A DNA stretch of 62,766 nucleotides, filler included, from a bacterium (GCA_027063545.1; 12 parts of 12 records of this genome joined end to end with filler, not necessarily neighbours in it), one strand, 5' to 3'. Shown: positions 1 to 41,303, counted from the whole stretch's first letter. The notes: a model not told the origin generated them from the sequence alone. Translations and numbers: made by a program.

Positions 1-186
1 AAAACTACCTGCTGCTAAAGCTGATAAAGCAACTATATCAAACTTTTCGGAAAAACCTTGATGTGCAATAACATGTCCCCCTTTATCTATTAATAAGGTA
101 CATATAGCATCTGATTCTTCTCTTAACTCTCTTAGGATATTATTTATCTTTTTTAAATCTTGTTCTCTTATTATATCCAATGACAT
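1..186 (-). CDS. mglB: MglB-type Roadblock/LC7 GTPase-activating protein, 3' end outside the window
   Basis: Not in the ORF track. Hand translation MSLDIIREQDLKKINNILRELREESDAICTLLIDKGGHVIAHQGFSEKFDIVALSALAAGSF matches the MglB pattern (LxDKxG...D..aLaaLxAG). An AAGGGAG RBS lies upstream. Confidence 0.85.
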   Translation of the reverse strand, partial: MSLDIIREQDLKKINNILRELREESDAICTLLIDKGGHVIAHQGFSEKFDIVALSALAAGSF

Positions 187-227
187 TTAGAATCTCCCTT
201 TTTCTTTATTTTAATATATTAAAATAT

Positions 228-1544
228 TTACTTTCCAGATAAAAATCCAAATAATTTTGAAAAAAATCCTTTCTTTTTCTTCTTCTTAGTAATAACAATA
301 TTCCCAGAACTAGTTTTATATTTAGATTTTAATAGATCTTGCTGAGCTGATTGGGTTGATATATCATCTTTTTTCTTTTCTTGAGTAATTTGGGCTTCTT
401 CTTTTAAATTTTGTTTAATATTTGAAATATTATTTTGTAATATTTCTTTATTACTATTACTTAATTCATCTCTAATATCAGCAGAAATATTCTCCATAGA
501 ACTATCTAATTCTATATTATCTACTTTATCAAACACTTTAGTCTCAGATAAACTAACAGATTCTAACTCTAAATCATTCTCTGTTTCCAACGAAATCTCC
601 TCTAACGAATTATTAGATGTAGATAAAGATGTTGATTCAAGATCTAACCCTATTTCCTCTTCTTCACTACCCAATGAGAATTCATCTTGCTGGGTATTAT
701 AAGAATGGGTCTCAAGTTCTATATCCTCTGATGATGTAGAAATTCTCTCTGTTGAATCTGAAGTATTATCCAAATTTATAGTTTCAAGTTCTATAGATTC
801 ATCTATATAAATAGAATTATCTTCATTTTTTATACTAATTTCTTCCATAGAAGCTTCATCTTGAGTATTATTTTTAGAACCGTTTGCTATAGTTGTTTCT
901 TCTACTTTTTCTTCTTCTAACTTTGTATCCTTAGGCGGATTTATAACTTCAACCCCATATTTTTGATGAAGATATTCTATTGTTAATTTGGAAATAACTT
1001 TTAATGTTTTAAAAACACCTTCACCTTTAATAGCTATTGCTTCAAAATCAGGAACCCCCCATAAATTCAAATCCTTTCTCATTTCCTCCACACTCATAAC
1101 ATTTGGTAAATCTCTTTTATTGTATTGAATTACTAACGGAATATCTTTAACAACCTCTAACCCCATTTCTTTTAAATTATCCTGTAAATTCTGTAAACTC
1201 TCTATATTTTCATCCCTTTTGGCAGGATCTGAATCTGCAACAAAAACAACAGCATCAACCCCTTTTAATACTAACTTTCTAGTTGCATTATAATAAACCT
1301 GTCCAGGAACTGTATACAATTGAAACTTTGTTTTAAACCCCTTTATTTCTCCTAAATCTAAAGGTAAAAAATCAAAATATAAGGTTCTATCACCATCTGT
1401 AGATAAAGAAAGCATTTGACCTTTATTAGTGTCAGGTGTTTTATCAAAAATAACTTGAAGATTTGTTGTCTTCCCACTCATTCCAGGACCATAATATACA
1501 ATCTTACAATTAATTGTTTTAGAACCATAATTGATTTGAGCCAT
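228..1544 (-). CDS. mglA: MglA-family Ras-like small GTPase with a ~240-aa acidic C-terminal extension
   Basis: KIVYYGPGMSGKTTN (G1), DRTLYFD (intrinsic Arg finger), LYTVPGQ (G3), NKRD (G4), followed by a D/E/S-rich tail ending KKKKKKGFFSKLFGFLSGK. Confidence 0.92.
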   Translation of the reverse strand: MAQINYGSKTINCKIVYYGPGMSGKTTNLQVIFDKTPDTNKGQMLSLSTDGDRTLYFDFLPLDLGEIKGFKTKFQLYTVPGQVYYNATRKLVLKGVDAVVFVADSDPAKRDENIESLQNLQDNLKEMGLEVVKDIPLVIQYNKRDLPNVMSVEEMRKDLNLWGVPDFEAIAIKGEGVFKTLKVISKLTIEYLHQKYGVEVINPPKDTKLEEEKVEETTIANGSKNNTQDEASMEEISIKNEDNSIYIDESIELETINLDNTSDSTERISTSSEDIELETHSYNTQQDEFSLGSEEEEIGLDLESTSLSTSNNSLEEISLETENDLELESVSLSETKVFDKVDNIELDSSMENISADIRDELSNSNKEILQNNISNIKQNLKEEAQITQEKKKDDISTQSAQQDLLKSKYKTSSGNIVITKKKKKKGFFSKLFGFLSGK

Positions 1545-1558
1545 AGCTATTATCCCTT

Positions 1559-1897
1559 TTATACATTTTCTAATAATTTCATTGCTTTTTTAACCTCTAT
1601 TCTTACAAGCCCCAAATTAACATTTGTCCTTGTAATAACTACTAGAAATCCTACTTTCACTCTTGATATGATTAATAACTTTGTCTCGCCCTCTATAATC
1701 ATCATTTGGAATTTTTCATTTTGAATATCCTGAAATGCCTTGTCTGATATTTCAACAATAGATGCCGATAAAGCCCCTACAAAATCAGAATCAACCTCTG
1801 TAGAAACATCCGAAACAACAAGCATACCTTCTTTGGTTACAATTAAACTTCCTATGATCCCTTTAACCCTATTTAAATTCTGTAATATTTCTTTCAT
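1559..1897 (-). CDS. Roadblock/LC7 domain protein
   Basis: 112 aa with the KGIIGSLIVTKEGMLVVS...VGALSAS...NVNLGLVRIE Roadblock pattern; adjacent to mglA. Confidence 0.85.
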   Translation of the reverse strand: MKEILQNLNRVKGIIGSLIVTKEGMLVVSDVSTEVDSDFVGALSASIVEISDKAFQDIQNEKFQMMIIEGETKLLIISRVKVGFLVVITRTNVNLGLVRIEVKKAMKLLENV

Positions 1898-1909
1898 ATC
1901 ATAAACTCC

Positions 1910-2335
1910 CTATTTTATTATTATATTGACAGCATTATTGAAAGAATTAAATATATCTATATATTTATCCATAATATTTTTCAATCTTAATCTTACCAAC
2001 TCTTCTACATTAGGAGCTGTCTTCATGATAATGATAACATATCCAATTCTTAATATTATAATATCATTATCTTTGAATTTTAATACCATCTCCTGTATCT
2101 CACCTAAATCTAAAATTTCCCCTGATTTTAAATACTCTATACTATATGCTAATAGTTTTTCTTCCTGTTCATTATAACCACTACTTGATATAAATAATCC
2201 TTCATAGGTACCTAATATAACAGTTTTTATAGCATTATAACCCATTAAATTTTCTATTATCTCATCCCATTCGTCTTTCTCTATCTCTTGATTAGCCTTT
2301 TGTTTTCTATCTTCTCCTCCAAAAAAGAATCCCAT
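1910..2335 (-). CDS. Roadblock/LC7 domain protein with N-terminal MGFFFGG extension
   Basis: AIKTVILGTYEGLFISS...LDLGEIQEMVLKF...NVEELVRLRL Roadblock-like pattern; GGAG RBS upstream. Confidence 0.68.
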   Translation of the reverse strand: MGFFFGGEDRKQKANQEIEKDEWDEIIENLMGYNAIKTVILGTYEGLFISSSGYNEQEEKLLAYSIEYLKSGEILDLGEIQEMVLKFKDNDIIILRIGYVIIIMKTAPNVEELVRLRLKNIMDKYIDIFNSFNNAVNIIIK

Positions 2336-2345
2336 CTATAAACTC

Positions 2346-3023
2346 CTATATTTCATCTAAATTTAGTTTTAATTTTAGATAATTAAGATTTAAATGTTGG
2401 GTTCCTACATAATACATGTTTATATTTTTCACACTTCTCACATATAAAATTGTTGTATTTTCATATGTTATTAATAAACTATAAATTTTTCCAATTTTTT
2501 CAACAAGTTTGTTATTAACTGAAGCAAAAAATTTTTGATTAAAATTTTCTATATAATTTTTTAAATTTTCACTTACATTATAACAAGATATTATTCTATT
2601 GGTATCATTAAAAAATACCCATCCCTTTAATATATCTTCTCCATCTACTATTTCTAAGAGTAAATTTTCTATATAAAGCCCTGATAAAATAGCAGAAGAA
2701 TTATAAGTAAGATATTCCTGTTTTAACTTTTCAATCACATCTTTAACCTCATTTGTAAGCTCAACTCCTTCAAATTTTGCTAATACCTCTTTTACTTTTT
2801 CTTTATCTTTTTGTAGTATATAAATTATTAAAAGGGCAATATAAGATATTATAGGTAACATACCTGTTGACAAATTAAATTCTAATTGCTTTATTGCTCT
2901 ATCGTATTTTCCCCTTGCAATAAGATTTTTTGCTATAAATACATTAAAAGCTTCATTTTCTGAAGCATATTTTCTTATAAAGTCATCTGAAAACAATTTT
3001 AGTATTTTTTCTCTTTCTTCCAT
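2346..3023 (-). CDS. TPR-like N-terminus plus degenerate Roadblock-like C-terminal domain
   Basis: IAKNLIARGKYDRAIKQLE is TPR-like; the C-terminal ~110 aa show a helix-strand-helix pattern ending HLNLNYLKLKL, similar to neighbouring Roadblocks. Confidence 0.45.
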   Translation of the reverse strand: MEEREKILKLFSDDFIRKYASENEAFNVFIAKNLIARGKYDRAIKQLEFNLSTGMLPIISYIALLIIYILQKDKEKVKEVLAKFEGVELTNEVKDVIEKLKQEYLTYNSSAILSGLYIENLLLEIVDGEDILKGWVFFNDTNRIISCYNVSENLKNYIENFNQKFFASVNNKLVEKIGKIYSLLITYENTTILYVRSVKNINMYYVGTQHLNLNYLKLKLNLDEI

Positions 3024-4162
3024 ACTTTCTTCACTTTTAATTGTTTTTTATCTAATATGTTCTCTTTTTCTATATCAGAAAATTTTTTCGGATATTTTAA
3101 TTTTTTTATATAAAAAATTTTAAATGCATATTCAAATTGGTCCTCATAAAACTCTTTAACATTTTTATTTAACTGTTTAGCTAAAAAGAAGCTATTATAA
3201 TCCATATTGAATAAGGTAATCTTAATATCAAATAATCTTAAAAGAGTAAGTAAAGAAAATAATACTAAAAATACAGTTGTATAAAGTATAAATATTGTTC
3301 TTTCCTTTAAACTATATACGATTTCATCTTCTAAAGTTCTATCTTCGATATCTTTTTCACCAACAACATTTAAGTAATCTTCTTCTAACAATTCTCTGAG
3401 AATTTCAAGTACTCTATATTCGCTCCAACCAGAAAATTTTATTATTTCATCAACATTATTGAAACCATTTATTTGTAAAATAACATCTCTATAAATATTT
3501 ACACCATCTGTTTCAGCAATTATAGTATCTACGTCTATATTCTCATCTTTTTCTTTATCACTCTCAGAATCATCTGAAGATTTTTTTATCTTTTTTAATA
3601 TAACCTCTTCTCTATTTTTTAATTCAAATACAAGCTTTCTATTGCTAAACATAGTATTTAAAATCTTCTTTGTATCAGAACGTCGAGCTGCTTCCATTAA
3701 AATAAAATCTGTTGAAATCCTTATATGTTCAAATGATTTTATCTCTACTCCAATATCAAATCTATATGTCCCATAATTTCTCATTAAAATCTCACATAAT
3801 AAATCCTCATAAAATCTCCTTATAAGTATAATAACTTCGTCTCTTTCTAAATAATTCCCTGTAAATAAAATCTCCTCAAATGTTGAATCATAACTTTTTG
3901 AAAACTCTTCAATTTCTTCTATAACTCTTTTAGGGAACTTCTTTTTATATAAGAGATAATTCTTTATAAAATTTAAGTTTTCAAAATATTTTCCTTTATA
4001 TCTAACAAAAACTATATCACCATTCTTAAAATGAATCTCTACTTTTTCATCATCTGAATAATCTAAATATAGAATTCCTTCCTTTTTATCTTGAGAGATA
4101 GTTTGTAAAATATTTTCTATAGGAAAATTTTCTAAATTACCACTTATAATTGTCTTAGCCAT
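2999..4162 (-). CDS. DUF4388 (PATAN-like) domain membrane protein
   Basis: ISGNLENFPIENILQTISQDKKEGILYL...IHFKNGDIV...GTYRF...LMEAARRSD; a winged-helix-like segment; one TM helix near aa 290-310. Confidence 0.8.
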   Translation of the reverse strand: MAKTIISGNLENFPIENILQTISQDKKEGILYLDYSDDEKVEIHFKNGDIVFVRYKGKYFENLNFIKNYLLYKKKFPKRVIEEIEEFSKSYDSTFEEILFTGNYLERDEVIILIRRFYEDLLCEILMRNYGTYRFDIGVEIKSFEHIRISTDFILMEAARRSDTKKILNTMFSNRKLVFELKNREEVILKKIKKSSDDSESDKEKDENIDVDTIIAETDGVNIYRDVILQINGFNNVDEIIKFSGWSEYRVLEILRELLEEDYLNVVGEKDIEDRTLEDEIVYSLKERTIFILYTTVFLVLFSLLTLLRLFDIKITLFNMDYNSFFLAKQLNKNVKEFYEDQFEYAFKIFYIKKLKYPKKFSDIEKENILDKKQLKVKKVWKKEKKY

Positions 4163-4176
4163 CTTTTTATTCCTTT

Positions 4177-5449
4177 TTAAAAGCCTATTATTTTTATATA
4201 TTTACGTCTATTTCTTAAATAATTAACTATATACACAACAAGCAATAAAATAATCACAATAAACTTTAACCAAAATTTTAATTCATATATGGGAATATAT
4301 ACACCTGTATATTCAAATCTAAAAGAAAATAATGTCCACAAGAAAACCAAGCCTGCTATCTTTACAAACGTTGTCCATTCTATTATATTCTCCAATAAGT
4401 TATAACTACCTGGTATTAAATACACTATAATTCTTCTTAAAATATACTCTACCCTCTTACTATTTTCTTTTAATTCTAATTTAAGTTTATTTTTCATTAT
4501 ATGACTTTCAACCGCCTCTATTTTTGAACCACAAATAGGGCAAAAACCATCTTCAGTTTTACATTTATAACATACTTCCATACCACAAATTTTACATCTT
4601 GTGATATATTTTTTCTTTGCTGTAAAAATGTATACAATAAACCATATTACTATAATGAGTTTTATAATAGATATAATTTGATCAAACTTTGTTTTTTCTA
4701 AATATTTTTTAAAATCGCTATATATAAAATCTAATATAAGATTCTTTGGTAATGGAATATCAAGCATAGCTGTGGGTTTATCTACACCTAAAAATTTACT
4801 TGTCAAAAAAATATAATTCTTTACAAAACTCTCCATATTTTGAATCTTACTCCAATAAGATTCAAATCCCTCTATATCAATAGACTGAGGATTAAGTTTT
4901 AATTTAGCCATATTATAATATACTTCTGGTATGAATTTTCTATTTAAAGCTTGCTTATATAACTTTTCACTTATTGTATAATTATTCAAAAAGAAATAAT
5001 CATTTGCTTTATTGGCTTCTACTTCTGGTAGTTTTTCTTCTATTGCATTTTCAAATTGATCCCATAATTTTAAAGAAGCAATATAATCTCCTCTTTTTTT
5101 CTCCTGATAAGCTAAAGCAGCCAATAATAAAGGATGTTTACTCTCCTCTAGTTTTTCCTCTATTTTTGCATAAAGATCTTCATCAAATCCGTATTGATAA
5201 CTTCTATAATATAACTGATATACCGAATCTGTTTTTAAGGGTATATAATATATATAAAGAAATTGATATACTAAAATTGTTAATAGTATAAAAATACCTG
5301 TTAATCCTAAAATTATCTTTTCATGAAGAATTATTTTTCTTGCAATTAAAACTCCAAATAAAATTATAATCCCATATATACCTAATAAATAATACAATAT
5401 TCCTAATCCTAATATACTATATATCCTGTGATATCCAATAGAAGCATTT
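4177..5449 (-). CDS. Multi-TM TPR protein with Cys-rich Zn finger, 5' partial (continues from 53595..54402)
   Basis: Frame is open to the contig end (NASIGYHRIYSILGLGIL...). TM segments, TPR-like repeats and RCKICGMEVCYKCKTEDGFCPICG are present. Confidence 0.75.
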
Positions 5450-5549
5450 NNNNNNNNNNNNNNNNNNNNNNNNNNNNNNNNNNNNNNNNNNNNTTAATTA
5501 ATTAANNNNNNNNNNNNNNNNNNNNNNNNNNNNNNNNNNNNNNNNNNNN
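5450..5549. other. Artificial contig linker
   Basis: N44-TTAATTAATTAA-N44 (stops in all six frames). Confidence 0.99.
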
Positions 5550-5892
5550 TAATAAGGAATATATAGTAATTAAAATAATGTCCTGATATATATAGAGATC
5601 GTCTGGTATTTAAAATCTTGTCTATAAAATAAAATTTTCTTATAACCTTATTCTTATTTTTAGAAAATAAATATAAAAAAATAAAAACTATTTCACAGAA
5701 AGAGACTGTAATAACACTATACTTTATAGTTTTTGTATAGATTTCATGATTAAGATTTAATATATACATAAATATCAACCATTCGCTAAAAGTAATTAAT
5801 GTAGGAAATACCATGCCTATAAGAAAAGTTGAAGTAATAGTATCCAATTTAGAATTAATTTTTCTATATAAAGTATTAAATATTCTCTCCAT
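5550..5892 (-). CDS. Hypothetical membrane protein, 3' partial
   Basis: ATG at 5892; two hydrophobic segments; runs into the gap. Confidence 0.5.
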
Positions 5893-11369: not shown

Positions 11370-12689
11370 TTATTGTAAGTTATTATTTAAATAATTCAAA
11401 GTTGATTCTATTATTTCTACAATTTGAGAAGAACTTAAGTTATTTATTAGTTCCAATTCTTCTTTTGTATAATTACCATTATTATCTAATAATTCTGGAT
11501 GTGCTATTTTATTTCTTATTAAATCTATTAAACGTTCAATTCTGGTATTTTTAGGAATATAATTAGTTATTATATCTAATAATTGATTTCTTAAACCAAT
11601 ATTGTTAATATTCGTATTTATAACCTCTAAATACATATTATTATTTCTTAAATTATCTATAAGCTGAGATAAAAGAATAACCACTTCACCTACTTTAAAT
11701 GTATTAAGATAAACTTCTATTAATTTTAGAGTTGCTCTTATTTTTTCTATATTATAAATGTTTTCATTAACATTTGATAAAAAATTAAATCTATTTTTAA
11801 ACTCGTTAAAAGCAAATTCTAATATCTTAGAATTCACGTTTAAATTTAAGTTTAAAATTCTAGAATAGTTTCTAATAACTAAATCCATTAATCCTAAATT
11901 GATGCTTTTTGAAAATTCATCTATCTTTGAAGTGTTATTATTTTTATTATCTTTTTTTACCTCTTCTATAAATAAACTAGCGTCATTATAATTTAATAAC
12001 TTATCTACTGCTACCATTTGATTTATTATGTCTTCAAATATGGGAAGTTTGACTACAGGTGTGATATTATTTTCATCTCTATACTCATATATTCCATAAA
12101 TAAATTCTATTTCTTTAATCTTTTTAATAGCATTTTTAAAAATCAAAATTATAGGTAAACTAATAGTTGGAAAATGTCTAAAAGAATGAGTTATATCTAC
12201 ATAAATTTTATCCACAGAATTTTGCAAAATTATATCATTTAAAATTTGAGATAAATTATAATAAAATTCTTTTTGTTGAGTTTTATTTAACAATGGTTGC
12301 CCCAAGATAACAGCATATACTTTCTTTTCTTTTAAATAGTTGATTAATTTTTCTTTTATACTCTCTTCTAATTTAGGATTTTTATTATTCCTATTTTTTA
12401 ATATTTGTTCTGAAAGATTACTCCAAAATTCTTCATACTCTCTATTTTCCTCTATCTCATTTTCATATAAATAAAGAAATAATTCATCCCACATTGATCC
12501 ATAAGTACCTATAATAATACTATAGTCAATATTATAAATTTTTTTTAAAGCTTCTGAAAACATAGATGTTTCTATTATTTGATTATTAGAAAATTTATAT
12601 TTTGCTACTTCATATTTTCCTCTGCCCTGAACTCTTTCTCCTTCTCTTGTTAATCTTCCTGTCCCTAAAAAAGAAAGAAGAAGATTCAT
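11370..12689 (-). CDS. csx1: Csx1/Csm6-type CARF-HEPN ribonuclease (DxTHG family)
   Basis: LLSFLGTG, GTYGSMWD, VDITHSFR (DxTH), C-terminal HEPN RNKIAH (RxxxxH). Confidence 0.85.
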   Translation of the reverse strand: MNLLLSFLGTGRLTREGERVQGRGKYEVAKYKFSNNQIIETSMFSEALKKIYNIDYSIIIGTYGSMWDELFLYLYENEIEENREYEEFWSNLSEQILKNRNNKNPKLEESIKEKLINYLKEKKVYAVILGQPLLNKTQQKEFYYNLSQILNDIILQNSVDKIYVDITHSFRHFPTISLPIILIFKNAIKKIKEIEFIYGIYEYRDENNITPVVKLPIFEDIINQMVAVDKLLNYNDASLFIEEVKKDNKNNNTSKIDEFSKSINLGLMDLVIRNYSRILNLNLNVNSKILEFAFNEFKNRFNFLSNVNENIYNIEKIRATLKLIEVYLNTFKVGEVVILLSQLIDNLRNNNMYLEVINTNINNIGLRNQLLDIITNYIPKNTRIERLIDLIRNKIAHPELLDNNGNYTKEELELINNLSSSQIVEIIESTLNYLNNNLQ

Positions 12690-12713
12690 TTTTATTCTCC
12701 TCGCTAATAGTTA

Positions 12714-13835
12714 TTATTGCACTGGGATTAATTTAATAAATCCGAGAAGATCACCATCAACAGTTCTTCTTGATTTTGGAAAAATTGTATAAATATTTCC
12801 TCTTATATCAAAAAAGTTTTTTATATTTTTATCATTATTATTTATTGTTATATTTAATTTTTCACTTAAATAAGTATTAATATCAGTATATTCTAATTCT
12901 CTATTTTTATTTTCAAATAAAGCAATCCATATAGTATGAGATAATAAACCTGTATATTTACCTATTCTAAGATATATCTCTTGTGTATTTGGTGTATTAG
13001 AATTAAAATTTTCAATCTGATTTAAATTAATACCGTTAGTTTCTGCAAAATTTTGTTCTAAAGTATATATCTGACGGGTAAAACGATTTATTGTGTCAAT
13101 ATCTATAAGATTATTAGTATCTAATTTTAAGGTTAGATAGTAGTTATTTCCATTTTCTTCAAACTTTTTTATCGCTTCTATATAAACAGGAAAATTTCTC
13201 ATATTGTGAAAACTTAGTTTATATAATTCTAATAGATCACATGATAAAATTACATCACTGACTTGTATAGAATGAATTTTATCTTTTATTTCATTCTCAA
13301 TATTATTCACTAATTCTTGCACAAAATTAAAAAAACCATTTAATTTTTCATACCACCTTAAATTAGCATCATTTCTTAAATTTTCTAATTTTGTATTTAT
13401 ATCATTAATTCTTTCTCTTAATCTTTGATAAATTATAACAGATCTAATAAAACCTTTTATACTAGAACCTGGTATTATAGGGTTTCCTACTGAAAATATT
13501 GGTTTATCTATTTCTTTAAATATATATCCTAAATCATCATAAAGAACATATTTTAACTCATTATTTTCTAATCTGTGTAGAATATTTTGAGATAAATTTT
13601 CTTCTAAATTATTTGCCTCATTCCTTTGACTTCTATTTCTTCTTATAATATTATACCATCTTTCTATATCTCTTAAAAAATTTTTTATACTATTTTCATT
13701 TTCAAAAGTATTTATTAAATCATCAAAATTGTATATATAAATATTACCATTTATATAAACAAAATTAAAAAACTTTAAATATTTTTCATCACTTCCTATA
13801 AAGGTTGGTGTTAAAACTTTTAGTTTATACTTCAT
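12714..13835 (-). CDS. csm5: Type III-A RAMP Csm5
   Basis: LKVLTPTFIGS, PIIPGSSIKGFIRS, VSD, LRIGKYTG, LLGFIKL; position after csm4. Confidence 0.85.
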   Translation of the reverse strand: MKYKLKVLTPTFIGSDEKYLKFFNFVYINGNIYIYNFDDLINTFENENSIKNFLRDIERWYNIIRRNRSQRNEANNLEENLSQNILHRLENNELKYVLYDDLGYIFKEIDKPIFSVGNPIIPGSSIKGFIRSVIIYQRLRERINDINTKLENLRNDANLRWYEKLNGFFNFVQELVNNIENEIKDKIHSIQVSDVILSCDLLELYKLSFHNMRNFPVYIEAIKKFEENGNNYYLTLKLDTNNLIDIDTINRFTRQIYTLEQNFAETNGINLNQIENFNSNTPNTQEIYLRIGKYTGLLSHTIWIALFENKNRELEYTDINTYLSEKLNITINNNDKNIKNFFDIRGNIYTIFPKSRRTVDGDLLGFIKLIPVQ

Positions 13836-13840
13836 AGTTA

Positions 13841-14920
13841 TTACCCCTCTCCAAATTTTATTGGAAATTCTATTCCGTATTGGTAGATAGTAAAAGCATT
13901 CAATAAAGATGTTTGTTCTAAATAAGTTATATTTGCTGGGATATTATCTTTATATTGCAAAATACTACCCTCAGATAAATAAATATAGGGTGGTTTTATT
14001 AAATTCTTAGGATTGTCATATGAAGACTCTACATAAGAAATATGAGATTCTATATTATAAAAACTCTTTTTTAAATCAAATATCCTTTTAGCGTAATTAT
14101 ACAAAACCGGAGATAAAGTTAAAACTTTTCTTGTATTATCATATTTATATAAATCTTCAAATTTCTGTATTATTTCATTATTTATTTCTTCTAAAATAAA
14201 ATTCCCCCAACCTAAATTTTTATTCTTACCTAATCCATTTTTTATCCCCAATTCAAATACTTTTCTAAAATCTTCTAAACTTATTAAATTATTATTTTCA
14301 TCAAAAAATACAACTACTAAAAAAGATACATTTTCCATAAACACAGGTTCTTCTAAAAATACCCTTTCTGACTTCTGAAATATTCTATTTACATAATTCT
14401 TTGTAATTACTTCTTGCTTTATTCTAAAATCTAAATTTTCTGATAATTCATTAGAAGATATTAAAAAACTTTTATTTACTATTTTATAATTTTCATTATC
14501 AAAAATTTCAATTTCTCTAAAATTATTTATATCTTCTTCAGAAGCATATGCAAAAAGTTCTTCATAAGCCTGTAAAGATAGGTATTTTAATTTTTTTATA
14601 TCTTTCCTTTTACCTAATATTTTTATCTTTTCTTGTAAATCTAATTCATTAGGATCAAACTCTACTTGAGTATTATATCTACGATTTATTAAATCTGAAA
14701 CCCATATAGGTTTAGGCAAAAAAACAATTTTATCTTTTACAAAAAAAAGTGGAGAAGACAATCTAAATATTGGAGTATAACTAAATTGTTGTAAAAAATT
14801 TATTAAATTTTCTTCTCCATATATTAACTTATAAGCCCATGCAAAAGCCCCAAATAGAGTGTAAGAATTGATATTTTTAAAGTATCCATTAGGGGTTAAT
14901 TTATATACTAATATAGTCAT
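13841..14920 (-). CDS. csm4: Type III-A RAMP Csm4
   Basis: SYTLFGAF, LSSP, FLPKP, GLGKNKNLGWGNF G-loop, TLSP, EGS. Confidence 0.87.
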   Translation of the reverse strand: MTILVYKLTPNGYFKNINSYTLFGAFAWAYKLIYGEENLINFLQQFSYTPIFRLSSPLFFVKDKIVFLPKPIWVSDLINRRYNTQVEFDPNELDLQEKIKILGKRKDIKKLKYLSLQAYEELFAYASEEDINNFREIEIFDNENYKIVNKSFLISSNELSENLDFRIKQEVITKNYVNRIFQKSERVFLEEPVFMENVSFLVVVFFDENNNLISLEDFRKVFELGIKNGLGKNKNLGWGNFILEEINNEIIQKFEDLYKYDNTRKVLTLSPVLYNYAKRIFDLKKSFYNIESHISYVESSYDNPKNLIKPPYIYLSEGSILQYKDNIPANITYLEQTSLLNAFTIYQYGIEFPIKFGEG

Positions 14921-14941
14921 ATCTTTTATCCTTTTTAATAA

Positions 14942-15673
14942 TTAATTATCATCTTCTATAGGATAAACTTTTGTAATATTATTAAAATCAAAATTTATCT
15001 CTACTCTTCCATATCCTCTTGAACCATCTCCACCTAAGTAATCACCTTCTAATAGTCTTTTTGCTCTTTTTAGAAGTTCTTTTAATTCATTGGATATTAA
15101 CCCATTTTCATCTTCAACATCACCTGAAAATACTCTTACAATTATCTTACCTTCAAATTCACTTTCAGGAATAACTCTTTCTGTATATCTTGGATTCTTT
15201 GCTTTTGAGGTTATTCTATCAATAGAATTCTCCACTTTCACTTCTATACCATTTTTTATTCCTAATTGCTCCCACTTTTCAATTGTATCTTCATTAGGAT
15301 ATAAATCTTCAAATCTCAATCTAATAGGTTCATTGATATCGACATTTGATGGATAACCAAAATATTTACATATTTTCTTTATTTCATTATTATTGTAATC
15401 TGCGATTTCAAACTCTCCATATTTTTCATTAAACTCTACTCCAGAAGTCAATTCTAAAAGTGATCTTAATTTACCTTTTAAAGAAGAACCCGGTATATAT
15501 GGAATATCATATATTTTCTTTTCTTCGTTTCTTATGTTATAAACTTTACATGGGGCTTTTATAATTTCTCTATCTACTCCTCCTATTTTTATATTGTCAC
15601 TATTTCCTCCAATATGAAGACCTGTTTTTACTTTTATTTTTACTGGTATTGAAACTATATGTTTTAATTTCAT
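14942..15673 (-). CDS. csm3: Type III-A backbone RNase Csm3
   Basis: TGLHIGG, IGGVD (catalytic Asp), PYIPGSSLKGKLRS, KVENSIDR, NPRYTERV, YLGGDGSRGYG. Start set at the ATG at 15673 after AAGGAG. Confidence 0.95.
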   Translation of the reverse strand: MKLKHIVSIPVKIKVKTGLHIGGNSDNIKIGGVDREIIKAPCKVYNIRNEEKKIYDIPYIPGSSLKGKLRSLLELTSGVEFNEKYGEFEIADYNNNEIKKICKYFGYPSNVDINEPIRLRFEDLYPNEDTIEKWEQLGIKNGIEVKVENSIDRITSKAKNPRYTERVIPESEFEGKIIVRVFSGDVEDENGLISNELKELLKRAKRLLEGDYLGGDGSRGYGRVEINFDFNNITKVYPIEDDN

Positions 15674-15708
15674 CTTACAACTCCTTTTTATATAGTTAAA
15701 TTTCACTT

Positions 15709-16598: not shown

Positions 16599-17635
16599 TC
16601 TCTTCTACAGATCCTATTTTGCAAACACTAGAGGAAAGAAAAAAGTTTGAGCAGATTCAAGAGGAATTTTTTGATATAGATAATATTAATAAATATATAA
16701 CTTGGGTATCTTCTAAGGCAGAATTGAGCGTTAAGGTTAAAAAAGATGGCAAAAAAATGAAAAAGGTTATAAAATATGTAAGAGTAAATGTTGGATTATT
16801 AAAACAGGATTTGGTTACTAAAGGAATTATAACATCCAAAGATGAAATTACAGAGGATTTAGGAACCCCATTTATTATGGTGTTACCAGAAGCTCCTAAA
16901 GGAAAATCTCCACTTGATTTATTAAAGAATGATCCAATAGCTAAAGCTGGAGCTACAGTTATACAATCTTATTTGACAGCAAGAGGTTATGATGTTCAAG
17001 TTCCAGAAGCAGAGGATGTTTTAAATCAATTAACATCTCTTCATTCTCAATTAGAAGGTGTGGAAGATGACCCTCATGCTCAAATTGCTCAACTTATAGG
17101 AGCTGATATATATATCACATATTCTATTACTATAGAACAAGGTAGTTTTGGAACAAAAAAAGCTTCAGTAACAGTTAAAGCTTATGAGACTACAACAGGA
17201 AGATTATTGGGGGCAGAAACAGGTTATAGTCCATCTTTAAAGATAAACTCAGAACAGGCTTTAATTGAAAATGCTATAGGAGATGCTATTAATAATGTAT
17301 TATCAAGAGTAATGGCATATTGGAAAAAAGATTTGAAGAAAGGTGTTAGATATAAAATTGTTTTCAAAATTACAGGTATAAATGGGGATAGGGCAGAAGA
17401 TTTAGGGGATATAATTGCTGATGTTGTAGAATCAAATTTTGATAAAACAAAAGAGTTATTATTTACTAACAAGACTATTAGCTATATTGTATGGGCATCA
17501 CCAGATGAATATAGTTCTGGAAGGCAAGTATATAGAGTATTAAGAAGAAAAATAGAGAGAAAGGCTCGAAATGTTAAGGTTTCTAGGATTGTTGTGAATA
17601 AGAAATTTATTTTAATAAAGGTTTCTCCAAGATAA
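16599..17635 (+). CDS. DUF6175-like (CsgG/FlgT-like fold) envelope protein, 5' partial
   Basis: PFIMVLP, GADIYI, KAYETTTGRLLGAETGYS; frame open to the contig start. Confidence 0.55.
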
Positions 17636-17651
17636 AGAACGGAGTTAGAGT

Positions 17652-19373
17652 ATGAAAAGGCTTAATATATTATTGGCTATATTTTTTGTATTGATTTATT
17701 CAAATATTTATTCCCAACCGGAATGGTATATTAATCCGCCATTAAATAGGTATCCATCTGAACTTTATTTTGTTGGGTTGGGTGCTTCCAAGGTAAGTTA
17801 TGATAAAGCGATAGAACAAGCTGTAAGTGATATAGCAAAACAGATAGAATCAAATGTTAGAGCTGTTTCTAAGTATAAAAAATTTTCTGAGAGATGGGGA
17901 GATAAAGAATTAATATCTGATTATTATAGATCTTCATCTCTTATATTCAGTGCTATAGAGATAAAGGGTTATGAAGTTGTAAAGAGAGAGTGTGTTAATA
18001 ATGAATATTATGCTATGGTAGTATTGGAGAAAAGTAAGTTTGTAAAGATATTAAGGGATGAATTAAAGGTTATTAATAATAAAATTAGTTCTTTGCTTTC
18101 TTCCTCTCAATCGTTTTTTAATAAGGGAGAGATCAATATTGCAATGGAAAAAATATTTGAAATAATGGATTTAATATATAAGGGAGAGGATAAAATTGAG
18201 TTGTTAGCCAAATTAGGCAATCTAACAGAAGATGATAAGTTAAATATTAATGAAGGTGAGCTTGAATCTATAATTTTAGAGATGATATCTTCTATAAAAA
18301 TAGAAAAAGTATCAGGAGATAATCAGCAAGCTTATGTAGGAGATAAACTTCAACCTTTTGTTGTTAGAGTTAGTGATAAAAATGGACATCCAATTAAGGG
18401 AGTTATGGTAGGATTTGATTTGGGTTATGGAGAAGATTTAAAGATAAAATACACAGATAAAAATGGCGAGGCTTCATATAGTATGATAGCTCAAAGGACT
18501 TCAGAGGATGGTTATATAATTATAGCAAAGTTAGTTTTACCATTTCCACCAAAGATTTTAAGAAGAATAGAAGATAAAATAGAAGTTGATTTTAAATATA
18601 TTGGAAAGCCGAGAGATTTAGGTAGTTTTAGTTTAGTAATAGATGCACCTTTTTATTTGAAAGAACAGATATATAATAAAATTAGTAATAAGTTAAAAGA
18701 TTTAGGAATTAATATAAAGGATAAATGCCGAAGAAAGATAAAAGTAAAATTTTATGGAAAGGTTAAATCAGAGATTACGTCAATGACTAGATTAGTGTTA
18801 GTGGAGGGTAGTTTAAATATTTCTTTATATAATGGGACTAAAAAGATAAAATCTATAGAGTTAAAGTTTAAAGGATTTGGAAATGGAGAAAAAGATGCTT
18901 TTTCTAAAGCTATAAGTTCTATAAAGTTGAAAGATAATGTATTAATTTCTTTATTTTCCAATTCAAAAAAAATTGAAAAAATCCCTGTTGTGGCTATTGT
19001 AGGATTTGAAAAAAATAATGTATATTATATTAATATAGAAAATATTTTATATGATTATTTAGTAGATGCTCTTTTAAATACAGGAAATGTGGATATTATT
19101 GATAGAGAAAGTATAAATGAAATATTAAAAGATATGGCTCTAGCTCAAGCAGGTGTTTATGATGAATCTACAATAAAAGAGTTAGGAAAGTTTGTTCAGG
19201 CGGATTATTTTATAAAAGGTAATATAAGTTTTATTTCAGATTATTATGTAATAACTGCAAAACTTATAAATGTTGAAACATTAAAAGTAGAAAAGACTGC
19301 TAAAATAAGAATATCATCTTTAGATAGGTTAAGATATGCTATGGAAAAAATAGCAGAACAAATTAGCCCTTAA
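17652..19373 (+). CDS. Secreted LPP20-domain + Ig-like + CsgG/FlgO-like protein
   Basis: Signal peptide; PEWY...YFVGLG...AIEQAVSDIAKQI (LPP20); KVSGDNQ...PFVVRVSD..G.P (Big_1-like); VAIVGF...IIDRESINEIL...LINVET (CsgG-like). Confidence 0.75.
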   Translation: MKRLNILLAIFFVLIYSNIYSQPEWYINPPLNRYPSELYFVGLGASKVSYDKAIEQAVSDIAKQIESNVRAVSKYKKFSERWGDKELISDYYRSSSLIFSAIEIKGYEVVKRECVNNEYYAMVVLEKSKFVKILRDELKVINNKISSLLSSSQSFFNKGEINIAMEKIFEIMDLIYKGEDKIELLAKLGNLTEDDKLNINEGELESIILEMISSIKIEKVSGDNQQAYVGDKLQPFVVRVSDKNGHPIKGVMVGFDLGYGEDLKIKYTDKNGEASYSMIAQRTSEDGYIIIAKLVLPFPPKILRRIEDKIEVDFKYIGKPRDLGSFSLVIDAPFYLKEQIYNKISNKLKDLGINIKDKCRRKIKVKFYGKVKSEITSMTRLVLVEGSLNISLYNGTKKIKSIELKFKGFGNGEKDAFSKAISSIKLKDNVLISLFSNSKKIEKIPVVAIVGFEKNNVYYINIENILYDYLVDALLNTGNVDIIDRESINEILKDMALAQAGVYDESTIKELGKFVQADYFIKGNISFISDYYVITAKLINVETLKVEKTAKIRISSLDRLRYAMEKIAEQISP

Positions 19374-19404
19374 TATTAATTAAACATAAAAAAAGGAGGG
19401 TTTT

Positions 19405-19965
19405 ATGAAAAAATTAGTAATGTTTTCAATGATGCTAGCATTGTTAGTAGTATTTTCAAGTTGTAGTAAAAAAGCAGATTTAGGTGAGGTTGAAGTAAAT
19501 GTGCCATCATGGTTTGCAAATCCGCCATCTGATGAGAATCATATCTATGGAATAGGTATGGGTAAATCTAAAAACATGCAAATAGCTATAAATAAGGCTA
19601 AACAAGAAGCAACAGTTGATATTGCTAAGAAATTAGAACAAAAAGTTATGGCTATGACTAAAAAATTTGCTCAAGAAGTTGGAGATGCTGAAGACCCACA
19701 ACTTTATCAAATGTTTGAAGAAGTATCAAAATCAGTAGTAAGTCAAACATTAAATGGTGTTCAAGTAAAAGAACAAAAGATTATGCAAAATAAGAAAACA
19801 GGAACATTTGTGGTTTACATGTTAATGGAAATGCCTTTAGGAAAATTAAATAAGGCTTTATATTATAAGATTCAACAAATGGAAGCTTTAAAGACAAAAT
19901 TAGAGGCTTCAAAATCTTTTAAGGAATTAGAACAAGAAGTTCAGAAATTAGAATCACAACAATAA
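19405..19965 (+). CDS. LPP20-family lipoprotein
   Basis: Lipobox VFSSC; VPSWF...IYGIGMG...AINKAKQEATVDIAKKL; strong AAGGAGG RBS. Confidence 0.82.
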   Translation: MKKLVMFSMMLALLVVFSSCSKKADLGEVEVNVPSWFANPPSDENHIYGIGMGKSKNMQIAINKAKQEATVDIAKKLEQKVMAMTKKFAQEVGDAEDPQLYQMFEEVSKSVVSQTLNGVQVKEQKIMQNKKTGTFVVYMLMEMPLGKLNKALYYKIQQMEALKTKLEASKSFKELEQEVQKLESQQ

Positions 19966-19975
19966 TAGTATAACT

Positions 19976-21292
19976 ATGAAAAGAAAAGCAAATATATATA
20001 GAGAGGGGTCTATAATAGGCCTCTCTCTATTTATTTTATTATTTATATTAAACATAGCTTATTCTCAGGATATAATAGAGAAGTTTTACAAGCAATATCC
20101 AGCTAAGTTTTTTTATACTTCTGTTGGTATTAGTGATGTTTCTTATGATGATGCTCTGAAGAAAGCTTTATCTAATATTTCAAAGCAGATTCAATCAAAA
20201 GTAGAATCTAAGAGTTATTACATAAAGTCTGATATGAGAGGGGTAATCTCAGATGTTTATTTAGATTTTTCCAAGATAAGTAGTAATCTTTACTTAAAGG
20301 GCTATAAAATTGTGGATAAGAAGAAAATTCAAGGTAATTATTATGTATTCGTAGTAATAGATAAATATGAATTATTGAATAGATTAAAGAAAGAATATCT
20401 AATGTATAAAAATTTAATTGAAAAGTATTATAATTCTGGCTTAGAGTTCTTAAATAATGGAAAACTTGAAATGGGAGTTTTTAATTTATTAGGTGTGAAG
20501 AAATTTTTACCTAATTATTATCAAGTTTTAACTCTTTTATCTGCAATATCATCTCCCCCTTCAGAGAAAGTATATACATGGAATAAAATAGTTAATATAA
20601 TTTTCGATTATGTCAAGGGTATAAAGTTTATATTTCCGAAAGATACAATTTATGCTAAATTAGGTAAAAGTGTAGATTTTAAAGTAAAAATTATAACAAA
20701 AAATAATATACCTGTTAAGAATTTAAAGGTAGTTGTATTGAGAAGTGAAAGTTTTCAACCTATAGGTGAATATATATCAAATGATAAAGGCGAAATAAAA
20801 GTAAATTTTAAAGCATATTACTCTCCGGAAATAGATATTTTAACTTTTTATCCTATAACTAGTTTTGATCTTCCAGATATTAAGTCTTTATTTAAAAATT
20901 TAGAATTTAAAGTTTATTATATAACAAAAGTATCAAAATTTCCTGATTTTTCTATAGAGTTTAAAGAGCTAGATATTGAAAATAAAGTGTATAGACAGGA
21001 AGTAAAACAAACTATTCAGCAACAAATAAATAATTATGGTTTAAATATCACAGAAAAATCACCTTATAAGTTAGAGGTTTATCTGTTGAGAGGGAATAGA
21101 GAGTATAAGAATGGTTTTTACAGGGAAGAGTTTTTACTTACAATAGAGTTACATAAGGATAATAAGAAGGTATATACTTTTTCCAAAAGAATTTATGCAA
21201 TAGGAAGAGACTATAGTTCTCTTTTTAAAAGTCTAAAATCAAAATTATATCTTCCAGAATCTCTTTTTTATGATATAATCAATAATATATAA
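19976..21292 (+). CDS. Secreted LPP20-domain protein, paralog of 17652..19373
   Basis: YPAKFFYTSVGISDVSYDDALKKALSNISKQI aligns with YPSELYFVGLGASKVSYDKAIEQAVSDIAKQI. Confidence 0.72.
   Translation: MKRKANIYREGSIIGLSLFILLFILNIAYSQDIIEKFYKQYPAKFFYTSVGISDVSYDDALKKALSNISKQIQSKVESKSYYIKSDMRGVISDVYLDFSKISSNLYLKGYKIVDKKKIQGNYYVFVVIDKYELLNRLKKEYLMYKNLIEKYYNSGLEFLNNGKLEMGVFNLLGVKKFLPNYYQVLTLLSAISSPPSEKVYTWNKIVNIIFDYVKGIKFIFPKDTIYAKLGKSVDFKVKIITKNNIPVKNLKVVVLRSESFQPIGEYISNDKGEIKVNFKAYYSPEIDILTFYPITSFDLPDIKSLFKNLEFKVYYITKVSKFPDFSIEFKELDIENKVYRQEVKQTIQQQINNYGLNITEKSPYKLEVYLLRGNREYKNGFYREEFLLTIELHKDNKKVYTFSKRIYAIGRDYSSLFKSLKSKLYLPESLFYDIINNI
19998..20040 (+). terminator. Intrinsic terminator/attenuator hairpin after the LPP20 lipoprotein gene
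   Basis: 15-bp stem ATAGAGAGGGGTCTA / TAGGCCTCTCTCTAT (two G-U pairs) followed by TTATTTTATT. Confidence 0.6.
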
Positions 21293-33066: not shown

Positions 33067-34218
33067 GCATTGCTTAAAAATATAGACAATCCAGATTTTA
33101 TGAGAGAATATTATCGTCAAATAGCATGGGTTGCTGATAAATCAAAGGGTTTAAAACCAATCTTTGTAATAGAACCAGATACATGGGGATATTTTCTAAA
33201 GGCAAAATTTCACGATGATTCTATAAAGTACAATGAAGCAACAGTGCATGCACATGTTAACGATTTAGGAGAAGGTTATGAGTATCTTTCTGATTTACCC
33301 AATAATCTCCAAGGAGTTGCAAGAGGAATTATAAGAACTATTAGAAAGTATGCTCCAGATGCTTATGTAGGATTTCATGTTAATACATGGGCTGTCTGGG
33401 TTGGGGGACTTATTAGTGGAATTTATGATTCTGATAATGCTAATGGCTTAGTATATTGGGATTCTTTAGATATAGCTTACAGTGCTCAAATAAATGCAAA
33501 GTTTTACAAATCTCTTTTAGGAGATGAAGATAGAGGAGATTTTATAGTAGTAGAAAAATATGGTCTTGATGCAGGAGTTGCTGGAGAAGCTTACTACTGG
33601 GGCGACAAAGAGATGGAAAAATATTTGTATTGGTGTAGTATTCTTTCAGATAGTTTAGATTTGCCATTATTAGGTTGGCAAATTCCTATAGGTCATTTAG
33701 GACTTCCAAACACAACAGATAGTTATGAAGATACTTTTATGCCATATTTTTTTAATCATGTAAATGATTTTATAAAAGTGGGTTTTATTGGAATTTTAGC
33801 GGGTCAGGGACTTCCTGCAGGTACTGACTATTCAACTTCCCCAGAATGGGGGGATCAAGGATGGCTTTTTTCTAAATTAGTTGAATTTGATAAGGGAAGA
33901 CCTTATTTGAGGGCATTATCTATTAATAAACAACAAGCAACATTCTCCATTTCAAAGAATATTAATATTGATATATATCCAAATCCATTTAATCCTCAAA
34001 CAACAATATATTTAAATAATTTAAAATTAGGAGGAAAAATATTTGTAGCTATATATGATATAAAAGGAAAGCTTTTACAGAGACTATATAAGGGGAAGAT
34101 TAACAGCAAAGATTTAAAATTAACTTGGAATGGAGAAAGTTTTTCCTCAGGAGTATATTTTGTAAAAGTAAAATATAATGGTAATGATATATCCAAAAAA
34201 ATGGTTTTAATTAAATAA
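33067..34218 (+). CDS. Putative glycoside hydrolase-like protein with T9SS type A sorting domain, 5' partial
   Basis: VIEPDTWGY, EKYGLDAG, GWQIP.G, YEDTF; CTD IYPNPFNP...IYDIKG...WNG...SGVYF...KMVLIK. Confidence 0.7.
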   Translation, partial: ALLKNIDNPDFMREYYRQIAWVADKSKGLKPIFVIEPDTWGYFLKAKFHDDSIKYNEATVHAHVNDLGEGYEYLSDLPNNLQGVARGIIRTIRKYAPDAYVGFHVNTWAVWVGGLISGIYDSDNANGLVYWDSLDIAYSAQINAKFYKSLLGDEDRGDFIVVEKYGLDAGVAGEAYYWGDKEMEKYLYWCSILSDSLDLPLLGWQIPIGHLGLPNTTDSYEDTFMPYFFNHVNDFIKVGFIGILAGQGLPAGTDYSTSPEWGDQGWLFSKLVEFDKGRPYLRALSINKQQATFSISKNINIDIYPNPFNPQTTIYLNNLKLGGKIFVAIYDIKGKLLQRLYKGKINSKDLKLTWNGESFSSGVYFVKVKYNGNDISKKMVLIK

Positions 34219-36699: not shown

Positions 36700-37077
36700 T
36701 TATGAAATTGATTCTATAATATTTTTCATAACCTCTTGATCTATAGGTTTTACAATATATAAGGTTGCACCTGCTAAAAAGCCTTTTTTTCTATCAGTTT
36801 CTGAATTTAAAGTAGTAACAAAAACAATAGGTGTAAGTTTATAATTTTCATAACTTCTTAATTTTTTTACAAATTCATATCCATCCATAACAGGCATGTT
36901 AATATCAGATAATATTAGATCATACTGCTTTTTTAAACATTTTTCCAAAGCTTCCATTCCATTTTCTGCCATGTCTACATCAAATCCAAAACTTCTAAGA
37001 AGTGATGAATGATATATTCTTATAGTTAATGAATCATCAACAACAAGAGCTTGTTTTTTTCTTTTAGAAGAACTCAT
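36700..37077 (-). CDS. cheY: CheY-like single-domain response regulator
   Basis: LVVDD, SDINMPVMDG, VTT, YIVKP; start moved to 37077. Confidence 0.82.
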   Translation of the reverse strand: MSSSKRKKQALVVDDSLTIRIYHSSLLRSFGFDVDMAENGMEALEKCLKKQYDLILSDINMPVMDGYEFVKKLRSYENYKLTPIVFVTTLNSETDRKKGFLAGATLYIVKPIDQEVMKNIIESIS

Positions 37078-37882
37078 CTTCTTCCTCCTTAATAGGTTTT
37101 TTATACACAATAGCATCATTTATTTTTACAGGTTCAAATAAAGAAGAAATTCCACTTAAACTTTCAGCATGTCCTAAAAATAAATAGCCTCCACCTACTA
37201 AAATATCGTATAAATTATTAACAGCTTTAATTTTTGCTGGTCTATCAAAATATATAAGGAGATTTTTGCAAAATATATACTGAAACTTTCCTAAAGATTT
37301 TATAAATCTCTCATCTAAAATATTTCCTTCATAAAATTTCACATATTTTTTTATATTATCTTTTATTTTGAATGTGTTATTATCTATAATGTCAAAATAT
37401 TTATTAAGATATGCTTCAGGAAGTTTAGAGACACTTCTATAATTATATAAACCTTCTTTTGCCTTTTTTAGAGCATTAATATCTATATCTACAGCTGTAA
37501 TAGAAAAAGGTCTAAATCCTAATACCTCTTTTAATACAATAGCTATAGAATAAGGTTCTTCTCCTGTAGAAGATGGTATGCTTAATACTCTAATAGGAGA
37601 TCCTAAATTTTCAGTTTGTACTAAATATGCTAAAGCTTTAAGATGAAAAAATTCTCTATAAAAATATGTTTCATTAACAGTTACTTTAGATATAAATTCT
37701 TTTAAAACCATCTTATCTGTTTTTAACATAACTAAATAATCTTTTAGAGAATCTATACCTAACTCCAGCATATGTTCCTTTATTCTAATCTCTAAAAAAT
37801 ATTTTTTATTGTCAGGAATAGTAATTCCTGTATTATCATATACTATTTTTTTAAATTGTTCAAAGTAGTAATTTGTTAGCAT
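37064..37882 (-). CDS. cheR: Chemotaxis methyltransferase CheR
   Basis: TVNETYFYRE, SSTGEEPYSIA, DID, IFCKNLLIYFD, GYLFLGHAES. Confidence 0.93.
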   Translation of the reverse strand: MLTNYYFEQFKKIVYDNTGITIPDNKKYFLEIRIKEHMLELGIDSLKDYLVMLKTDKMVLKEFISKVTVNETYFYREFFHLKALAYLVQTENLGSPIRVLSIPSSTGEEPYSIAIVLKEVLGFRPFSITAVDIDINALKKAKEGLYNYRSVSKLPEAYLNKYFDIIDNNTFKIKDNIKKYVKFYEGNILDERFIKSLGKFQYIFCKNLLIYFDRPAKIKAVNNLYDILVGGGYLFLGHAESLSGISSLFEPVKINDAIVYKKPIKEEEDEFF

Positions 37883-37887
37883 ATAGA

Positions 37888-38355: not shown

Positions 38356-38455
38356 NNNNNNNNNNNNNNNNNNNNNNNNNNNNNNNNNNNNNNNNNNNNT
38401 TAATTAATTAANNNNNNNNNNNNNNNNNNNNNNNNNNNNNNNNNNNNNNNNNNNN
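38356..38455. other. Artificial contig linker
   Basis: N44-TTAATTAATTAA-N44. Confidence 0.99.
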
Positions 38456-39519: not shown

Positions 39520-39532
39520 CTCTTTAACTCCT

Positions 39533-41275: not shown

Positions 41276-41303
41276 AATAGAAACCTTTTAGTATATTATT
41301 TTT

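Follow-up and report, generated by a model that had tools for sequence, protein, structure and literature searches.

The window analyzed here, a stretch of 62,766 nucleotides of bacterial DNA including filler (GCA_027063545.1; 12 parts of 12 records joined end to end, which are not necessarily neighbors in the genome), contains close to its beginning a gene for a long version of the Ras-like GTPase MglA, called P0001, with 438 amino acids (aa). The protein ends in six lysine residues followed by a hydrophobic, amphipathic segment similar to the membrane-targeting sequence (MTS) of MinD, and as judged from the sequence, this tail likely targets the protein to the membrane. P0001 is a deep-branching representative, with an unusually strong charge, of a widespread, apparently undescribed variant of MglA that is presumably membrane-tethered. 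MglA, the model Ras-like switch of bacteria, has been regarded as soluble and as reaching the cell pole via protein partners. The gene is composed as follows, with the strand in parentheses.

228..1544 (−): whole gene of the long MglA P0001, 438 aa, one open frame that ends in TAA
960..1544 (−): G domain of a group-1 MglA Ras-like GTPase, aa 1-195, from a phmmer search against PDB
288..959 (−): acidic linker rich in Ser/Glu/Asp, aa 196-419, likely disordered, from net charge, low identity, and the AlphaFold2 (AF2) model
378..455 (−): low-confidence helix within the linker, aa 364-389, from DSSP on the AF2 model; the predicted local distance difference test (pLDDT) score of this block is 43-58
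270..287 (−): run of six lysines, aa 420-425, from the translation
231..269 (−): amphipathic hydrophobic tail GFFSKLFGFLSGK, aa 426-438, a putative membrane-targeting helix, from helical wheel, hydrophobic moment, consensus match, and likeness to the MinD MTS

A preliminary description of the DNA had claimed that an MglA ends in hexalysine plus a MinD-like amphipathic segment, and both are indeed present in the last 19 of the 438 aa. Positions 228-287 are the stop codon and the last 19 codons, which read KKKKKKGFFSKLFGFLSGK and then TAA, while the longer C-terminal stretch reads NIVITKKKKKKGFFSKLFGFLSGK. The last 100 residues contain no cysteine, a CaaX box is not present, and the protein terminates with ...FLSGK. 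On a helical wheel with 100 degrees per residue, the check suggested beforehand, residues F427, F428, L431, F432, F434, and L435 were located within one arc between 80 and 240 degrees, and the opposite face was composed of G, S, and K. The segment KGFFSKLFGFL had a hydrophobic moment of 0.62 and a mean hydrophobicity of 0.78 on the Fauchere-Pliska scale, which made it the third-highest 11-residue window of P0001, and the moment of the tail was 0.46-0.62. The Wimley-White interfacial sum of the 13-mer was −3.4 kcal/mol, compared to about −0.6 kcal/mol for one MinD motif, estimated manually on this scale, so that a monomeric, constitutive binding is plausible. A preprint (bioRxiv 10.64898/2026.10.05.756812) gives the MTS of Escherichia coli MinD as ...KGFLKRLFGG, and the consensus of the long-MglA tails, KKKKGF[FL][SG][KR]LF[GN]K, is almost the same, so the claimed likeness to MinD was borne out. 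In homolog P0213, the tail KKKKGFFKRLFGLK is nearly identical to the MinD MTS. The tail of P0001 and that of MinD share the location at the extreme C terminus, the basic residues, the glycine, and PhiPhi-xx-PhiPhi-G (Phi, hydrophobic residue); as far as the sequence goes, a MinD-type amphipathic helix is the closest analog of the P0001 tail.

Conservation of the tail among long MglAs had been set in advance as the point at which the proposal could fail, and the tail was found to be conserved. P0002 to P0004, the nearest homologs of P0001, have 426-470 aa and the same architecture, and each of them closes with an amphipathic segment that is preceded by 4-5 basic residues. Though the linker diverges, a basic run and then a short hydrophobic segment were present at the end of all 13 sequences of the alignment A1. 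Among the 120 best long matches to P0001 (240-767 aa), 95 carried a hydrophobic transmembrane segment at the C terminus and 13 a basic amphipathic-type tail (9 by criterion, 4 by eye). The remaining 12 were 3 proteins with a SurA_N-like end plus P0005, P0087, and 7 proteins with Pro/Ala-rich ends, which are probably truncated (3 are labeled partial by the source).

For the second sample, 1.84 billion cluster representatives were searched with HMMER, and the best 150 matches were taken. All of these were long, 255-717 aa, in part since clustering at 50% identity merges the short MglAs into few clusters. A strict rule was applied, PhiPhi-xx-PhiPhi in the last 25 residues with at least three Lys/Arg, a net charge of at least +2, and no transmembrane segment. 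This sorted the representatives into 39 with a strict amphipathic tail, 31 with a transmembrane tail anchor, 2 with an internal transmembrane segment, and 78 “other” proteins, about 10 of which were near misses by eye. The strict classifier does not catch P0002 and P0004, the tails of which read PhiPhi-xx-Phi-xx-PhiPhi. In the controls, the rule was matched by 2 of 120 HslU homologs, 1 of 120 short MglAs, 1 of 48 other open reading frames (ORFs) of the window with at least 150 aa, and 37 of 8,001 internal linker windows (0.5%). The consensus of 40 tails was KKKK-G-F-[FL]-[SG]-[KR]-[LF]-F-[GNK]-[KR], and the PhiPhi-xx-PhiPhi core was followed by a median of 4.5 residues. Lysine was the commonest residue at positions −5 to −2 of this profile, and P0001, itself among the 40, possessed the commonest residue at 12 of the 12 positions from −5 to +6.

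Other C-terminal ends were visible among the long MglAs. P0087, P0125, P0144, P0161, P0166, P0227, P0233, and others have a β-strand-like C-terminal module ...VVLKLRI.V... followed by ...RRAA, without an anchor. Acidic peptide ends, ...DSPFIDLQPFRGVD or ...ELRPYIPKG, occur in P0194, P0199, P0219, P0250, P0253, P0259, P0223, and P0261, which are nested in the amphipathic cluster of the tree described below; this suggests that the anchor was swapped for a protein-docking motif. A large amphipathic-tailed clade (P0086, P0124, P0136, P0151, P0155, P0167, P0183, P0232, P0238, and others) contains a module ...FFTSVNTDR...[KR]P[VI]NPK... about 15-25 residues ahead of the amphipathic end, which is not present in P0001.

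In a quick IQ-TREE tree of 91 hand-picked G domains from 372, the C-terminal types fell into clades. These were a transmembrane clade (support 98; 19 transmembrane and 2 short proteins), a clade with a β-rich C-terminal domain (support 81; 14 of the 14 sampled), and a cluster of 34 amphipathic plus 7 acidic-motif proteins, with a weak backbone of the tree. A FastTree tree of 194 rows showed the same block structure. Transmembrane and amphipathic anchors are located at the same place in sister clades, which argues for membrane attachment as the selected property. P0001 is thus no one-off case of convergence: it belongs to a large subfamily of amphipathic-tailed MglAs, and a further large clade has a transmembrane tail anchor.

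The G domain identified the protein as MglA, as had been claimed. Residues 1-193 of P0001 matched the Myxococcus xanthus MglA structures 5ymx/6h17/6hjh with an E value of about 4e-76 and the Thermus thermophilus structure 3t12 with an E value of 5e-69 (phmmer, PDB), with Arf and Sar1 ranking far below at 1e-6 or weaker. Pfam returned only the general Arf, Gtr1, and Roc models for this domain. The P-loop GPGMSGKT at aa 19-26 fits GxxxxGK[ST] and aligned to that of M. xanthus MglA, and DRTLYFDF plus YTVPGQ lined up residue for residue with 5ymx_A. The P-loop, R53, T54, TVPGQ82, and NKRD142-145 (G4, NKxD) were invariant in A1. In MglA, R53 is the intrinsic arginine finger, T54 the switch-I threonine, and Q82 the catalytic glutamine. 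The G domain should consequently be that of a catalytically intact switch GTPase of the normal MglA type, as read from its motifs. Short MglAs in the database have 194-195 aa, no tail, and 65-68% identity to the G domain of P0001, which agrees with the structures and with the earlier statement that canonical MglA is without such a tail. With 438 aa, P0001 is outside the size of single-domain MglA (about 195 aa; survey limit, 240 aa). All catalytic and synteny criteria place it in group-1 MglA, its size does not, and the whole protein is a longer variant.

The linker between the G domain and the tail has about 224 residues, is rich in Glu, Ser, Asp, Ile, and Asn, and carries a net charge of −36 to −38. 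Its identity between P0001 and P0002 to P0004 was 20-28% with 65-83 gap columns, compared to 72-78% for the G domain. The AF2 model gave a pLDDT below 50 and no secondary structure at all for aa 197-369, in a model that was built on a shallow 13-sequence alignment, had a mean pLDDT of 47.6, and also scored the G domain poorly. We infer that the linker is disordered, and the long flexible tether of the preliminary description agrees with the missing conservation and with this model. Seven spaced [ILV][DES][ILV][DES] motifs of the “IELE” type (IELE, LDLE, ISLE, LELE, VSLS, and IELD) are located at aa 251-347, and the linkers of P0002 to P0004 contain comparable DLEIE/DIDID strings. These could be short binding or β-prone motifs and not plain disorder. 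Linkers were net negative in 32 of 42 long MglAs of the amphipathic class, most strongly in the P0001 clade (−26 to −53), in contrast to a median net charge of +8 in the transmembrane class, with 7 of 33 being negative. This contrast hints at a charge relationship of linker and tail, possibly masking.

Compared to known systems, P0001 combines a familiar switch with an additional part. It shares with MglA from M. xanthus and T. thermophilus the G domain in aa 1-193, the catalytic motifs, and an adjacent gene for a Roadblock (MglB-type) protein. Those MglAs are soluble single domains of 194-195 aa, whereas P0001 adds the roughly 224-aa acidic linker, the 19-aa basic amphipathic tail, and three Roadblock-type genes instead of one. 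In contrast to MinD, P0001 is a Ras-like GTPase and not a ParA/MinD ATPase, its MTS is connected via a 220-aa linker and not directly to the fold, and the tail contains one extra hydrophobic turn (FL) plus six lysines; an avidity that depends on dimerization is not known for P0001. The Planctomycetota-type long MglAs with a transmembrane tail agree with P0001 in the G domain, the nonconserved linker, a membrane element at the C terminus, and a Roadblock gene immediately downstream, but they use a hydrophobic anchor of about 20 residues instead of a surface helix and possess net basic linkers.

A K-Ras-like targeting had also been proposed. The layout of K-Ras4B was found again in P0001: a G domain with the Ras fold, a flexible and variable region, six lysines, and a hydrophobic anchor at the end. 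The mode of attachment was not, since P0001 has neither the cysteine nor the CaaX box, which makes prenylation impossible and leaves a putative peptide helix as the hydrophobic element, closest to the MinD type. The linker is also about ten times longer than in K-Ras4B and strongly acidic. Due to the missing CaaX box, the comparison is an analogy and not a homology.

The standard MglA survey by Wuichet and Sogaard-Andersen left out sequences of more than 240 aa, and this cutoff may explain why the long forms went unnoticed; membrane anchors on MglA were not mentioned in the survey text as searched. Full-text literature searches, with a coverage that does not extend to supplements and subscription journals, found no description of a membrane-anchored MglA.

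The neighbors of the MglA gene in positions 1..5397 of the window are all located on the same (−) strand.

4177..5397 (−): 406-aa protein with multiple hydrophobic stretches and a Cys-rich part resembling a zinc ribbon, encoded at the start of the same-strand run; weak match to Zn_ribbon_NOB1, E 0.009
2999..4162 (−): PATAN (DUF4388) protein, 387 aa; Pfam DUF4388, E 2e-18
2346..3023 (−): 225-aa gene in the place of the TPR+Roadblock gene of related loci, assigned by position only
1910..2335 (−): divergent gene of the Roadblock type, 141 aa; 27% identical to the 112-aa Roadblock protein, with a pairwise E of 1e-4
1559..1897 (−): Roadblock/LC7 (MglB-like) gene, 112 aa, directly upstream of MglA; Pfam Robl_LC7, E 8e-14
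1..186 (−): start of a third Roadblock-type gene, 62 aa seen, cut by the window edge, directly downstream of MglA; tblastn in related loci

A homolog of the 406-aa protein is encoded upstream in locus L005 (E 5e-12). The PATAN protein contains a hydrophobic stretch ...TIFILYTTVFLVLFSLLTLLRLF... near the C-terminal third, and PATAN genes are located upstream of MglA in L005, L018, and L006; a passage of a preprint describes MglA/MglB homologs as regularly encoded beside PATAN proteins (bioRxiv 10.1101/2021.06.11.447907). The 225-aa protein did not significantly match the TPR+Roadblock protein L006:4068-4898 (BLASTP E 0.09), and all Pfam families were below the cutoff. The 141-aa protein reached an E value of only 0.16 with Pfam Robl_LC7 and corresponds in position to the 135-aa Robl gene of L006, with an insignificant sequence similarity (E 2.2). 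Homologs of the 112-aa Roadblock are encoded directly upstream of amphipathic-tailed MglAs in L005, L006, L012, L018, L023, L024, and L042 (E 4e-16 to 1e-20). No paralogs of MglA or Roadblock proteins were found elsewhere in the window.

The 81 related loci contained 56 short MglAs, 7 transmembrane-tailed and 7 amphipathic-tailed ones (plus L006 by eye), 8 “other”, and 3 cut ones. The only Planctomycetota locus from the contig search, a single match, carried a short MglA. In the seven strict amphipathic loci, a Roadblock gene was located upstream in five and immediately downstream in six (E 3e-11 to 3e-15). L005 and L006, sorted as “other” by the strict rule, had Roadblock matches on both sides of MglA. 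A downstream Roadblock-type gene was present in 15 of 22 loci with a complete long MglA, including all 7 transmembrane-tailed ones, and the downstream 162-aa counterparts matched Robl_LC7 with E values of 7e-14 (L018) and 2e-13 (L006). The gene order in L018 and L006 is ComEC, PATAN, small ORF, TPR+Roadblock, (Roadblock), Roadblock, long MglA, Roadblock, PilB, PilT, PilC. The TPR-Roadblock/LC7 fusions of 277-290 aa upstream of the amphipathic-tailed MglA (L018, 3809-4681; L006, 4068-4901) matched each other between loci with E values of 2e-42 and 1e-58. PilB was the next gene in all five amphipathic-type loci with at least 880 bp of downstream sequence (L006, L018, L023, L042, and L059), a count that leaves out three amphipathic loci with at most 604 bp downstream. 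None of the 7 transmembrane-type loci had PilB downstream (4 of them extend more than 4 kb beyond MglA), nor did any of the 8 “other” loci or of the 59 loci with a short or cut MglA. The window is collinear with L018 and L006 as far as its sequence goes.

Evaluation of a membrane-tethered MglA at the pilus motor needs to consider the points that speak against it, to which the shallow alignment of the AF2 model and the loci left out of the PilB count belong as well. When the residues of the tail were shuffled, the observed hydrophobic moment was reached in 722 of 20,000 cases for the 12-mer (3.6%) and in 2,395 of 20,000 cases for the 13-mer (12%). The amphipathicity of the P0001 tail alone is weak evidence, being only modestly unusual compared to the shuffles. 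The case against chance rests therefore on conservation. A broader tail criterion was unspecific, as it matched 20 of 120 short MglAs, so that the tail counts depend on the strict rule. The AF2 model, from its 13-sequence alignment, gave aa 426-438 no helix, with a pLDDT of around 43-50. Amphipathic membrane-targeting sequences usually fold only on membranes. P0001 to P0004 formed a clade of their own (support 98), which was outside the main amphipathic cluster in the free tree, in an unresolved polytomy with a support of 25. Constraining the four to the main amphipathic cluster gave a likelihood that was 18.3 log units better than that of the free search, with a P value of 0.785 in the approximately unbiased test. 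A single amphipathic-tailed subfamily that includes P0001 and has homologous tails is allowed by these data, not proven. Finally, the window ends 227 bp past the stop codon of MglA, and the link to the pilus motor is for this organism consequently an extrapolation from the related loci.

The tail might instead serve as a short linear motif for docking to a protein partner, for instance, the MshEN domain of PilB, a Roadblock dimer, or the PATAN protein, and not to lipid. The tight synteny with pilB and the Roadblock genes would fit this, as would the peptide-like ends ...DSPFIDLQPFRGVD and ...ELRPYIPKG of other long-MglA clades nested in the amphipathic cluster. That a sister clade possesses a true transmembrane segment in this position is, on the other hand, hard to square with specific docking, and a tail that is nearly the lipid-binding sequence of MinD, with basic flanks throughout the family, also argues against it, so that a docking motif is quite unlikely. 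A third possibility would be a neutral, functionless low-complexity sequence of a genome with 25% guanine-plus-cytosine (GC) content, in which AAA encodes Lys and TTT encodes Phe. The genome has indeed a GC content of 23-28%, and the tail is encoded by DNA rich in AAG/AAA and TTT/TTA. The single match to the tail rule among the 48 other ORFs of the window speaks against this origin, as does the extreme C-terminal location in 39 of 150 representatives compared to the rare occurrence in internal linker windows. Moreover, the GC-rich homologs P0193 and L018 possess the same motif with Arg codons replacing Lys, which indicates that the tail motif is no by-product of a low GC content. A neutral origin of tail and linker is thus highly improbable.

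Binding to the membrane may also be conditional. The tail would then be masked by the acidic linker or the G domain and freed in one nucleotide or partner state, which would result in a reversible switch. MinD itself binds to the membrane only as an ATP dimer, and the mostly net negative linkers of the amphipathic class, with the P0001 clade as the most acidic one, compared to the net positive linkers of the transmembrane class, point in the same direction. A structural coupling of G domain and tail was not seen, however, and the linker is conserved neither in sequence nor in length. With four phenylalanines and eight lysines, the tail exceeds one MinD MTS in both hydrophobicity and basicity, which favors constitutive binding. 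Such a switch is unlikely.

When the tail is taken as a membrane anchor, P0001 probably works leashed to the inner membrane, judging from its domain layout. The six lysines would provide electrostatic attraction to a membrane rich in anionic phosphatidylglycerol and cardiolipin, and GFFSKLFGFL would fold on the bilayer into a surface helix with four Phe and two Leu buried in a MinD-like manner. The linker of roughly 220 residues would allow the G domain to roam some tens of nanometers from the inner membrane while keeping it in two dimensions, and its acidic residues, repelled by the anionic membrane surface, may turn it into a flexible spacer. The flanking Roadblock (MglB-type) proteins probably cycle the membrane-held G domain; we infer this regulation by Roadblock proteins. 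From the synteny in related loci, the probable targets of P0001 are membrane-bound partners: the PATAN protein and the type IV pilus motor PilB/PilT/PilC.

An extension of the membrane-anchor reading is more tentative and, on the whole, doubtful. The amphipathic MglA, three or four Roadblock paralogs, the TPR-Roadblock protein, and the membrane PATAN protein might assemble into a GTPase scaffold that resides in the membrane on the cytoplasmic side of the type IV pilus machine, chooses between PilB and PilT, and would be a prokaryotic counterpart of Rag-Ragulator or Ras nanoclusters, with the acidic linker as a charge-repelled spacer or a mask for switchable binding. If true, this would mean that membrane-anchored small-GTPase signaling arose widely in bacteria, independent of prenylation.

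A large and phylogenetically broad set of self-anchored MglAs would change the picture of a soluble MglA to one of small-GTPase signaling on the bacterial membrane surface. It would parallel eukaryotic Ras, Rho, Arf, and Rab, with a peptide anchor replacing the lipid modification. The linkage of amphipathic-tailed MglA to pilB-pilT-pilC provides a concrete, testable output, and the tail of P0001 would be a compact candidate for a membrane tag in synthetic biology.

A few observations concern the origin of the DNA and the remainder of the window. The nearest MglA clusters to P0001 came from Zixibacteria, Fibrobacterota, and Acidobacteriota, and the best named relatives of the HslU protein in the window, with 49-54% identity, were scattered across many phyla. 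Two proteins encoded at 33070-35984 (+) contain a C-terminal sorting domain of the type IX secretion system (Por_Secre_tail), one of them being chitinase-like (GH18); these sorting domains suggest a lineage of the Fibrobacterota-Chlorobiota-Bacteroidota type. About 100 bp upstream of the MglA cluster, an ORF at 5494-5892 (−) has a run of 15 X in its translation, which is N in the DNA and probably a scaffold gap. Rfam had no matches in the window. Two RAMP superfamily proteins at 11370-15706 (−) (Pfam E 2e-8 and 2e-19), encoded among unassigned neighbors, appear to belong to a type III CRISPR-Cas effector cluster. A lipoprotein-like cluster at 16619-21292 (+) contains DUF6175, an LPP20+LpoB/CsgG-like protein, and an LPP20 protein of 438 aa, the length of which equals that of MglA by coincidence, as both are unrelated. 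At 37064-42296 (−), a CheR methyltransferase gene adjoins those of NeuB, a DegT aminotransferase, and a dehydratase, which represent a sugar pathway of the nonulosonic acid type; such pathways often serve the glycosylation of flagellin or pilin.

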